A DNA stretch of 64,000 nucleotides, taken from the NCBI GenBank assembly GCA_023247255.1, contig JAHFGV010000002.1:33835-97834 (forward strand). The letters are read 5' to 3'. The stretch's first letter is position 1, and every line of letters starts with the position of its first letter. The notes below the pieces were generated by a model that saw nothing but the letters and a program-made list of their open reading frames with translations, was not told the DNA's origin and made no database searches. Source of the DNA: Candidatus Omnitrophota bacterium. Lineage in GTDB: Bacteria; Omnitrophota; Gorgyraeia; Aquiviventales; Aquiviventaceae. The translations under genes and the position numbers were made by a program. Below are positions 4,384-52,544 of this stretch, in pieces.

Positions 4384-4455
4384 GCTGGCGTAGCTCAATG
4401 GCAGAGCAACGGTTTTGTAAACCGTGGGTTGGAGGTTCAATTCCTCTCGCCAGCT
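4384..4455 (+). tRNA. tRNA-Thr(TGT)
   Basis: Cloverleaf GCTGGCG/CGCCAGC, anticodon arm ACGGT-TT-TGT-AA-ACCGT, GGTTCAATTCC T-arm; CCA not encoded. Confidence 0.97.
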
Positions 4456-4642
4456 TATTTCTCGTCTTGCGAGAGGAATTGAAGGGAGCGCCGACTCAGT
4501 TTAAGGGCGCTGCGACGGGCAGGAGCAGCGACATTCCTTTGGAGGCGCGGGTGGCCGACCCGGAGCGAGTCGAAGACGAGCGGAGGGCGCCAATTCCTCT
4601 CGCCAGCTTATTTCTCGTCTTGCGAGAGGAATCGAAGGGAGC
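4438..4642 (+). mobile_element. tRNA-Thr-anchored 153-bp element bounded by a 52-bp direct repeat of the tRNA 3' end
   Basis: caattcctctcgccagcttatttctcgtcttgcgagaggaat(t/c)gaagggagc at 4438-4489 and 4591-4642. Confidence 0.8.
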
Positions 4643-4671
4643 CGAGCCTTCGGTCAATCAAGAGAGCCGAG

Positions 4672-4747
4672 GGAATTGTCGATTGCCGATTTTCGATTGA
4701 ACGAAGGTTTTTCAATCGACAATCCAAAATCGACAATCGACAATTCC
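4672..4747. repeat. Palindromic heptamer module ggaatt-(tcgatt..)n-loop-(aatcgac)n-aattcc
   Basis: Related copies at about 5180-5241, 32349-32430, 32888-32967, 43046-43117, 48215-48302, 48360-48423, 51664-51746, 52232-52313, 58566-58645, 63225-63281. Confidence 0.85.
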
Positions 4748-4916
4748 AAGGCTGTTTCATGATCCCTTAGTCGAGGCGGGTGGCCGACCCGGAGCGAGTC
4801 GAAGACGAGCGGAGGGCGCCGATTCCTCTGGCCATCTGAGTTAGCCTCACGAGGAGTTATGGTATGGTAGGAGTTCTTAGATATTCCAGTTCTGTGCGCT
4901 GATTGCTGTTCTTCAA

Positions 4917-5002
4917 GGGCAGGTGCCGGAGTGGCCAATCGGATCAGTCTGTAAAACTGACGGGCTTACCGCCCTACCCAGGTTCGAACCCTGGCCTGCC
5001 CA
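4917..5002 (+). tRNA. tRNA-Tyr(GTA)
   Basis: GGGCAGG/CCTGCCC acceptor, TCAGT-CT-GTA-AA-ACTGA, long variable arm, GGTTCGAACCC. Confidence 0.96.
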
Positions 5003-5285
5003 TCGTTTTCAAGATATGCTTACATTTTGCCACAGGCCGGTATTTGTGAAGGGAACCCGTTTGTTCCTGCAAGAAGGGGAGGGTTCGAAGGCCGAACGCC
5101 CACCGCGTTCGGCATTCCGCGGCTGCCCCGATGACAGCCGCTGCAGGAGCCGAGCCGTCGATCAATCAAAAGAGCTGAAGGAATTGTCGATTTTCGATTG
5201 AATGAAGGTCTTTCAATCGACAATCCAAAATCGACAATTCCAACAGCTTGTCACTTGTAACTTGCTACTTGTCACTATTCTTAAT

Positions 5286-5356
5286 GCGGGTGTAGCACAG
5301 TGGTAGTGCGCTAGCCTTCCAAGCTAGTCACACGGGTTCGATTCCCGTCACCCGCT
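5286..5356 (+). tRNA. tRNA-Gly(TCC)
   Basis: GCGGGTG/CACCCGC acceptor, CTAGC-CT-TCC-AA-GCTAG, GGTTCGATTCC. Confidence 0.97.
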
Positions 5357-5537
5357 TTTTTGTCTTGTGACGGGAATCGAAGGGAGCCGCGACACAGATT
5401 AACGTCGATCCGACGAATAGGAGGATCGATATTCCTTAGGAGCGGCGGGTGGCCGACCGAAGCGAGCCGAAGGCGAGCGGAGGCGCCGATTCCCGTCACC
5501 CGCTTTTTTGTCTTGTGACGGGAATCGAAGGGAGCCG
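5339..5537 (+). mobile_element. tRNA-Gly-anchored 148-bp element bounded by a 51-bp perfect direct repeat of the tRNA 3' end
   Basis: cgattcccgtcacccgcttttttgtcttgtgacgggaatcgaagggagccg at 5339-5389 and 5487-5537. Confidence 0.8.
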
Positions 5538-5785
5538 AGCCTTCGGTCAATCAAGAGAGCCGAGGGAATTGCCGATTGTCGATTTTCGATTGAATAAAGC
5601 TATAAGAATCGGTATTGTTTGGGCTGACCTCCTTTTGCTCCCAACGCGCATTTACTCAGGAGAGCGGAAAATAGGTTGCATTACCGCCATGCCGATTCGA
5701 CGCTGCACTCAGCGCAAGGGGCAACCTTTCATTCGCTCCGCTCAGTAAGATTTAATATGAGTCAACGCGTGCGATGGCCCTGCCG

Positions 5786-51374: not shown

Positions 51375-51889
51375 TTCTTCCTGCTTTCCTCCTGCATGTT
51401 CAACCTCCCAGTTTTGTAGAAGCATAGGTATCTATGCTACAATCGTTCGAGCCGAAGTAGATTTGGAAGACGGCTGTTCAATCGAAAATCGACAATCATC
51501 AATCGACAATTCCATGGGGGAGACATCCCGCCCACCCGATCGTTGAAGCAAACCAACTGGGCCCATGCCTTCGGCTGTGGGCCCGATGGCGGGGAGGAGT
51601 CCCACAAGATGAGTTTGTGGCACTGATAACCTCTCCCCTCTCAAGGAATCATGAAACTGCCTTGGAATTTTCGATTGTCGATTTTGGATTTTCGATTGGA
51701 AGACGGCTGTTCAAACGAAAATCGACAATCGTCAATCGACAATTCCACGGAATGAGTTTGTGGCATTCAAGAACACGCTCCGCGTGGGTCGACATCCCGC
51801 CCACCCATTGGCTGTTCTGCCGTGTCACCTACGGCTTTCGGCGTGGCGCAATGGCGGGGTCGAAATTAATTCGCGGAGGCAAAATTCTT

Positions 51890-51962
51890 GGGGCAGTAGC
51901 TCAGTTGGGAGAGCGCGACATTCGCATTGTCGAGGCCAGGGGTTCGATCCCCCTCTGCTCCA
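51890..51962 (+). tRNA. tRNA-Ala(CGC)
   Basis: GGGGCAG/CTGCTCC with G3:U70, CGACA-TT-CGC-AT-TGTCG, GGTTCGATCCC. Confidence 0.95.
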
Positions 51963-52141
51963 TTTCTAAACGTCTTGGGGATCGAAGGGAGCCGAGCCTT
52001 CTTTCCTCAACGTCGCCGCGACTTATGGGAGCGGCGACAATCCACTTGGCGAGGCGAGTGCCCGACCGGAGCCCGAACGAAGTGAGGGCGAAGGCGGCGA
52101 TCCCCCTCTGCTCCATTTCTAGACGTCTTGGGGATCGAAGG
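51945..52141 (+). mobile_element. tRNA-Ala-anchored 153-bp element bounded by a 44-bp direct repeat of the tRNA 3' end
   Basis: cgatccccctctgctccatttcta(a/g)acgtcttggggatcgaagg at 51945-51988 and 52098-52141. Confidence 0.8.
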
Positions 52142-52544
52142 TCAAGCGCCCGTCGCGCTCGACATTCCGCGGCTGCCACGATGGCAGCCGCTTCAGGAGC
52201 ACCGAGCCTTCGACCAATGAAGAGAGCCGAAGGAATTGTCGATTGATGATTGTCGATTTTCGATTGAACGAAGGTTTTTTAATCGACAATCCAAAATCGA
52301 CAATCGAAAATTCAAAAAGGGAACGCCGACAACCGAGGCCGAAGGCCAAGGAAGTACCGCAATCAGGCAGACGATTGCGGTACCTCCGCTGCTCCACCCT
52401 GCTTAACATAGGTTGCAATATATTATACTACGACCCTCGTTTCACGTTCGTGACGGCCCACGCTAATAAAAACTCTTGAGGTCACATCCGTTCATTGACG
52501 ACTACAGCACGGACATGCTACCCTTTCAAGCAGGAGGAAACGCC

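Follow-up and report, generated by a model that had tools for sequence, protein, structure and literature searches.

Behind the genes for tRNA-Thr, tRNA-Gly and tRNA-Ala in the stretch of DNA analysed here (the window, 64,000 nucleotides in total), the same arrangement is found: the intact tRNA gene is followed by a spacer, an arm antisense to the T-arm of this very tRNA, a core and a second copy of the tRNA 3′ end (Table 1). This common layout, put forward in a preliminary description of the sequence, was confirmed, and the periods of 153, 148 and 153 bp (Thr, Gly and Ala, respectively) were reproduced. The arms, described as tRNA-specific, match exactly over 15, 15 and 10 nt and fit their own tRNA better than the other 43. 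The duplication begins at C56 of the T-loop, as had been proposed, with the identity to the tRNA stopping there in leftward direction at all three loci. At each of them a second arm follows the copy, so that the arrays are longer than first noted, and the Thr array includes a complete second unit and a third, degenerate copy.

Table 1. Features of the tRNA-associated units in the window.
Feature	Position	Strand	Remarks
tRNA-Thr(TGT), intact target	4384..4455	+	T54 = 4436, junction base C56 = 4438
T-rich spacer with terminal GTCTT, Thr locus	4456..4468	+	
Thr antisense arm, 15 nt	4469..4483	+	exact reverse complement of Thr positions 54-68
Thr type A core, 107 nt	4484..4590	+	three covarying stems, tandem G-A motifs, GAA triloop
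Second copy of Thr 3′ end, from C56	4591..4608	+	
Second Thr spacer and second arm (4622-4636)	4609..4636	+	arm agrees with distal copy at position 57
Long type A core, Thr second unit, 183 nt	4637..4819	+	palindromic repeat inserted, about 4672-4747
Third Thr 3′ end copy, degenerate	4820..4836	+	3 differences
tRNA-Tyr(GTA)	4917..5002	+	
Tyr T-loop antisense arm, 10 nt	5080..5089	+	next comes a different hairpin module; downstream copy absent
tRNA-Gly(TCC)	5286..5356	+	C56 = 5339
Gly spacer and 15-nt antisense arm (5367-5381)	5357..5381	+	
Gly type A core, 105 nt	5382..5486	+	
Second Gly 3′ end (5487-5504), spacer, second arm (5515-5529)	5487..5529	+	
Gly truncated long-type core	5530..5595 (end approximate)	+	
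tRNA-Ala(CGC)	51889..51963	+	C56 = 51945
Ala spacer and 10-nt antisense arm (51977-51986)	51964..51986	+	
Ala type A core, 111 nt	51987..52097	+	
Second Ala 3′ end (52098-52116), spacer, second arm (52130-52139)	52098..52139	+	followed by an alternative module as behind Tyr

The genes flanking the units are housekeeping genes (ftsH, folP, pdxJ, acpS, a gene of the carbohydrate-kinase family, rplM and rpsI), in agreement with the earlier statement that no gene for a responsible enzyme lies nearby, and Rfam searches at the gathering score gave nothing but tRNAs in the window. The third module type, located at 5090-5150 after the Tyr arm and at 52140-52200 after the second Ala arm, also occurs behind tRNA-Met (contig C27) and tRNA-Arg(CCG) (L018). 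Palindromic repeats are present in the window at 4672-4747, 5173-5248 and 51660-51750; in the whole genome, such repeat families account for 218 matches (ATTGTCGATTTTCGATTG-like) and 234 matches (CATGACACATAACACAT-like), inserted in cores as well as elsewhere. Between 48506 and 51374, behind a PilC-like gene, five tandem open reading frames with type IV pilin-like N-termini were read from the translations.

Independent unitigs from the sequencing runs X1 and X2 cover the positions 4450-4576 and 5360-5516 with 0 differences and at 12-14x, which equals the depth of the flanks; both runs belong to a single study, perhaps the source itself, and past the junction the Gly unitig continues for only 30 letters. 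The Thr and Gly duplications are thus reproduced in two runs, and the layout recurs in dozens of unrelated assemblies, so that an assembly artefact was rejected as far as testable. One contig of run X4 carries a one-unit Thr allele in which 4546 is joined to 4776 (depth 4.6, 45 shared letters at the joint). On this contig, array length varies between strains.

An antisense arm, defined by at most 2 mismatches in 11 nt and a subsequent module start, was detected behind 28 of the 44 tRNA calls and behind the tmRNA of the window's genome (2.18 Mb, 90.7% complete), with one to three units per locus. The cores are non-coding and typically about 105 nt long, with a range of 105-195 nt, and two types can be distinguished. 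Type A cores begin with GGGAG, end with GGCGC and have their junction at C56; type B cores begin with CCCTGAAGG, and their copy takes in GGTT. In genome G000 (contigs C12, C27 and C29), type B cores were observed behind the tRNAs Arg(CCG), Gly(CCC), Ser(CGA), Arg(GCG) and Ser(GCT), where they alternate with type A units within the same arrays. In the same genome, tRNA-Pro(TGG) is followed some 2 kb further on by a second, degenerate copy (C43:36208-36286), and tRNA-Pro(CGG), at a distance of about 1.5 kb, by the remnant of a Pro-like T-arm that has an arm and a unit of its own (C32, near 39250), each of the two possibly the end of an older island. An orphan Leu-like end with spacer and arm but no upstream tRNA adjoins a glycine-cleavage H-like gene (C12, near 21200).

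From 16 type A units, a covariance model (R1) was constructed; it gave matches in 24 of 41 relatives and in 72 of 141 genomes of the phylum, the presence of a tRNA having been checked for only part of them. With a strict pattern, 20 loci were obtained from a species collection, half of them from Candidatus Omnitrophota or Omnitrophica; 18 are units, of which 17 follow a called tRNA and one lies at the edge of a contig, and the other two (L036 and L050), located at no tRNA, were treated as chance matches. The same pattern gave 36 loci in metagenomes and 0 matches in viral contigs. The sequence GTCTT had been regarded as a conserved motif of the family. This view was not upheld, as GTCTT precedes 7 of the 28 arms in the window's genome (six by computation, that of Arg(GCG) read from the sequence) and 1 of 67 arms elsewhere, and is therefore a lineage motif local to this genome. 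The units themselves are real, widespread and strongly matched to their targets. A literature search, with subscription papers outside its reach, retrieved no description of this family, and PMC8144298 was the only relevant paper.

The position of the junction is nearly invariant. When copies were searched for with A58 as the anchor, 124 of the 146 located downstream proved to start at C56, with the loci partly selected via model hits, and in the window's genome 20 of 24 copies show no leftward extension past this base. The copies comprise 18-19 nt from C56; in a comparison of 17 nt, 66 of 83 show no difference from the live tRNA. Blocks of foreign origin are found within arrays: the Glu(CTC) array of the window's genome contains an Ala-type end and arm, with a spacer as at its Ala(GGC) locus, and the Tyr array at locus L176 contains a foreign Tyr-allele end with an open reading frame of 165 aa between two junctions. 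Cores are likewise exchanged between loci. For 45 cores, in a comparison that left out L085 and L088, the nearest relative was located in the same genome in 20 cases, at the same tRNA elsewhere in one case and at other places in 24; cores with 98% identity reside on different tRNAs, namely Trp and Thr(GGT) in the window's genome and Ala and Leu in G037. Since the nearest core is found in the same genome and rarely at the same tRNA elsewhere, the core is retargeted. These results support the proposal that one non-autonomous family with a fixed junction at C56 of the T-loop targets many unrelated tRNAs.

Tracking of the cognate tRNA by the arm was assessed with 83 units parsed behind 80 of 255 scanned tRNAs of the window's genome and its relatives, with loci partly picked by module hits and four low-identity rows kept in the count. 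At the variable positions compared (57, 59, 60 and 63-66), arm and tRNA agree in 474 of 581 cells, while 2000 shuffles gave a mean of 253 and a maximum of 297. When shuffled within isoacceptors (without L085, L088 and L164), 137 of 159 polymorphic cells agree, against a mean of 79 and a maximum of 117. In a separately fetched metagenome set, in which 33 of 39 matches have a called tRNA upstream, agreement was found in 202 of 231 cells, unusual T-stems included, compared with a shuffled maximum of 135. As kin are not independent, these shuffle comparisons are not to be read as probabilities. Units were also found at 3 of 30 tmRNA loci; there, a TG loop goes along with an arm ending in CA (two cases) and a TT loop with AA (one case), and the corresponding positions 54-55 fall outside the duplicated segment. 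The two arms ending in CA may represent one event. The expected covariation of arms with their cognate tRNAs across genomes was thus found, down to the alleles of isoacceptors.

Tracking is imperfect, with 87 non-matching cells at the positions 56-65 of the 83 units, just 13 of which are G-T. Of 14 tRNA cases with a difference between upstream end and downstream copy, 10 have an arm that agrees with the former and four an arm that agrees with the latter; with the tmRNA L239, whose arm also matches the downstream copy, 5 of 15 informative cases are of this second kind. In unit 2 of the Ser(GGA) array, an anti-Ser(CGA) arm is flanked by local ends, and at L167 an old arm is retained behind an old end. 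Differences in the first copy peak at the positions 57 and 59, which vary naturally, so that they look like displaced alleles. The non-pairing spacers are as similar within isoacceptors as between them (0.30 vs 0.29), and spacer lineages by isoacceptor are unsupported overall. Hence, of the earlier proposal on the arm, the match to the target stands, whereas a role as guide or an origin in the insertion step itself does not follow: arms often lag or mismatch, five of the 15 informative ones fit the downstream copy, and the Ser(GGA) arm is foreign.

The core has a conserved fold. RNAalifold with the 16 units gave 33 pairs, 23 of them with compensatory change. In 88 distinct matches from other genomes, 94.4% of the cells are paired and 533 change on both sides, exceeding 500 of 500 shuffles and all slid controls, with the pair counts resting on an alignment fitted to the covariance model. 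One pair links the core to C56 itself, and the neighbouring pair covaries. Facing GA dinucleotides were read from the alignment in every stem, and the terminal loops of the 83 units include C(GNA)G in 34 cases, GNRA in eight and UNCG in none. In the stems of the cores, G-T accounts for 51 of 2783 cells and mismatches for 5.6%; for the tRNA stems of these loci, the values are 3.0% (G-U) and 0.2% (mismatches). In DNA, particular stability is a property of both GNA triloops and tandem G-A pairs. Judged by sequence, loop and wobble statistics lean towards a single-stranded DNA substrate, although decay would give mismatches too, and, set against these statistics, an RNA-processing role for the units appears weakly disfavoured.

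A tyrosine recombinase, an IS110-type recombinase and TnpA/RAYT had been named as possible mobilising enzymes. The search for them led to nothing beyond Xer-like recombinases and Y1 genes without flanking modules. In detail, the window's genome (90.7% complete) gave no match for IS110 (PF01548), reverse transcriptase or Cas1; it contains two tyrosine recombinases, with best matches to families of the XerC/XerD type, nine Y1 matches and two GIY-YIG matches. Type A modules are absent beside the 12 loci tested, i.e. 8 of the 9 Y1 genes, both GIY-YIG genes and both recombinases, with no R1 match better than E 0.49 at Y1. By inspection of 41 genomes, the number of units shows no visible link with the number of Y1 or GIY-YIG matches; for instance, G020 has four units and no Y1, and G027 has two units and 11 GIY-YIG matches.

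In relatives, small GIY-YIG genes are often located within about 300 nt of tRNAs. Long intervals behind 292 tRNAs yielded the cargo reading frame of L176 and, behind tRNA-Asp at L130:1300-2330, two identical units of 491 bp, each consisting of an 18-nt tRNA end, hairpins and a GIY-YIG gene. The latter units have neither a matching arm nor a type A core, and their copy begins at A58. GIY-YIG genes that follow type A units sit outside the last copy (L117 and L087), and in the relatives none of these genes turned up within a type A unit. At L131, L132 and L138, the 5′ end of the tRNA is duplicated, often together with a palindrome, and a small GIY-YIG gene separates this duplicate from the intact tRNA. 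L073 and L037 were rejected as longer autonomous copies, their intervals merely spanning neighbouring tRNA genes. Between two tRNA-Ser genes with the same 3′ half, L073 (344-1405) carries a reading frame of 353 aa for which Pfam gave no match; an intein-bearing ATPase model matched it weakly, and it is likely LAGLIDADG-like. A mobilising enzyme was not identified by these searches.

Among known systems, the tRNA-linked repeats (TLRs) of E. coli, comprising the RtT units of tyrT/tyrV, units of the lysT cluster and RrA/B/F, come closest in layout. According to the text of PMC8144298, they lie behind tRNA or rRNA genes as tandem arrays of one to five units, and every unit closes with 18-19 bp copied from the 3′ end of the gene; 22 of them occur at ten loci, and they have been known since 1978 with “no known function”. 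The units described here share the position directly downstream of the tRNA, the end copy of 18-19 nt and a tandem number within one to five. In the E. coli tyr and lys TLRs (fetched as L069 and L070), antisense T-arm segments with 10 of 10 and 9 of 10 matching bases as well as hairpins with GNA loops are present; the tyr arms end in GAGAA, a variant shared by six of the 83 and three of the 39 arms examined in the unit family. The main text of PMC8144298 mentions neither an antisense arm nor mobility, and its Supplementary Figures 1-2 could show the arm. Differences concern the start of the copy, which is A58 or A59 in E. coli and C56 here (2-3 bases apart), and the extent, with 28 of 44 tRNAs and the tmRNA here against the ten loci given in PMC8144298. 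None of six modules matched the Rfam family RtT (RF00391) at E<=5, while E. coli units scored 47-138 bits, and R1 found three tyrV-distal E. coli units merely at E 0.45-0.86. The units are therefore TLR-like in layout and not members of RtT. By these sequence comparisons, the two families appear not to be homologous and to share a layout, arm included.

Integrative elements that target tRNA genes bring a replacement 3′ end and displace the original one downstream (attL/attR). The units differ from these by their size of about 150 bp, the lack of an integrase between the repeats, tandem stacking, the internal antisense arm and the use of nearly every isoacceptor. Integron cassettes (attC) and IMEX of the CTXphi type are folded single-stranded DNA substrates of tyrosine recombinases; the crossover of integrons lies between G and TTRRRY, that of attI or dif between G and TT. 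By analogy, the units would resemble these in their proposed working, with a folded single-strand donor, single-strand exchange, stacked cassettes and an occasional cargo reading frame. In contrast to integrons, no IntI was found (both recombinases are Xer-type), the crossover between TT and C is located inside the tRNA gene, and the site sequence varies with the tRNA. HUH systems such as IS200/IS605 and REP-RAYT use single-stranded DNA hairpins and choose targets by base pairing, with guides of 4-5 nt and no target duplication, whereas the units duplicate 18-19 bp, have arms of 10-17 nt and are absent from the flanks of the tested Y1 genes. For IS110 elements with bridge RNA, the DEDD recombinase gene was not found in the window's genome. 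Ssn GIY-YIG nucleases are, according to PMC11893778, small site-specific nucleases for single-stranded DNA tied to NTS/SRM hairpin repeats; the likeness lies in the related small GIY-YIG genes by tRNAs of relatives, none of them inside a type A unit.

To account for these data, we propose that the units are non-autonomous single-stranded DNA cassettes, each composed of tRNA 3′ end, spacer, arm and core, which are exchanged between T55 and C56 by a trans-acting enzyme and whose arms are rewritten by copying the adjacent tRNA end. We give this reading about an even chance of being correct. Direct observation covers the common layout, the junction at a fixed base, arms that track their tRNAs, stems that covary, cores exchanged among loci and blocks of foreign origin in arrays; to this the proposal adds a circle, an enzyme and an arm-rewriting step that we infer. 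The top strand of one period would exit as a circle, the fold of which would let the arm make its own tRNA end double-stranded. A single top-strand exchange between T55 and C56, or at an internal junction between GC and C, would then be resolved by replication, putting the end of the unit on the tRNA, leaving the gene intact and displacing the old end downstream. As the last two bases of the arm would pair with the intact target only (positions 54-55), insertion would be favoured. For retargeting, a unit would come to lie next to the end of another tRNA, where the hairpin, now imperfect, could be rewritten by template switching during replication; cores could be swapped through recombination between arrays.

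The occurrence of the same GTCTT before seven different arms in the window's genome counts in favour of the cassette proposal. Against it, no empty site was seen in a same-species genome and no enzyme was found, and the arms that equal the downstream copy, like the foreign arm in Ser(GGA), fit a target-site duplication better. Moreover, for a tRNA present in single copy, the acquisition of a foreign end would be lethal, and first colonisation would therefore need an extra step.

According to the duplication reading, only spacer, arm and core would be mobile, and staggered nicks with subsequent repair would generate the 18-19 bp of tRNA end, the nick being made by a small Ssn-like GIY-YIG nuclease. 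The large share of downstream copies identical to the live tRNA agrees with this, as do the GIY-YIG genes near tRNAs, the tandem units of L130 and, as described in PMC11893778, the cleavage of single-stranded DNA by SsnA next to hairpin repeats. Yet the L130 units differ from type A in arm, core and start, the other GIY-YIG genes lie outside the last copy or in 5′-end duplications, the foreign 3′ ends within arrays are left unaccounted for, and the word tRNA does not occur in PMC11893778; we consider this explanation unlikely.

Two further explanations dispense with current mobility, and we regard both as quite improbable. The units could be host RNA elements co-transcribed with the tRNA, in which the arm switches between live tRNA and copy to control processing, or the excised core could be a small RNA like RrA/B/F of E. 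coli. In the predicted precursor RNA, the arm pairs preferentially with the live tRNA and outcompetes its cloverleaf, with a margin of some 5 kcal/mol in the case of Thr and Gly, the two forced folds for Ala being equal; the core has GGA motifs, and PMC8144298 reports that RrA/B/F are transcribed, processed and bound by CsrA and Hfq. This idea is difficult to reconcile with the patchy presence in genomes of the phylum and on tRNAs of the window's genome, with the many units that are decayed, truncated or broken by other repeats, and with stems that do not favour G-U pairs and loops in which RNA tetraloops are rare, and a regulator would need neither a junction exact to one base nor foreign blocks. 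Alternatively, the units may be old scars without a dedicated enzyme today, their arms and copies kept matched by slippage, gene conversion and quasi-palindrome correction. Such a history would suit the failure to find an enzyme, the near-identical cores at neighbouring loci and the one-unit allele of run X4, whose 45 shared letters at the joint are expected from homologous deletion; it does not account for the colonisation of 28 tRNA genes and the tmRNA at the same base, for compensatory change throughout the core or for cargo-bearing foreign blocks with the same junction bounds.

A bolder form of the cassette proposal would be self-programming, DNA-guided insertion, in which a protein-free cassette copies its guide from the adjoining tRNA end and directs one enzyme acting in trans to T-loops, whichever tRNA or tmRNA they belong to, a process that would underlie the TLRs of E. 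coli, too. We hold this version to be rather doubtful.

The unit family presents the TLR layout in a genome where most tRNA genes are reached. With a junction defined to one base, an arm that follows alleles, a covarying fold of DNA type and cargo blocks, an old curiosity becomes a testable hypothesis on mobile DNA. If the reading as single-stranded DNA cassettes is true, the tRNA-linked repeats of E. coli would be explained as well, and, should the arm truly serve as a guide, the enzyme would amount to a compact insertion tool, programmable by DNA, that spares its target gene.
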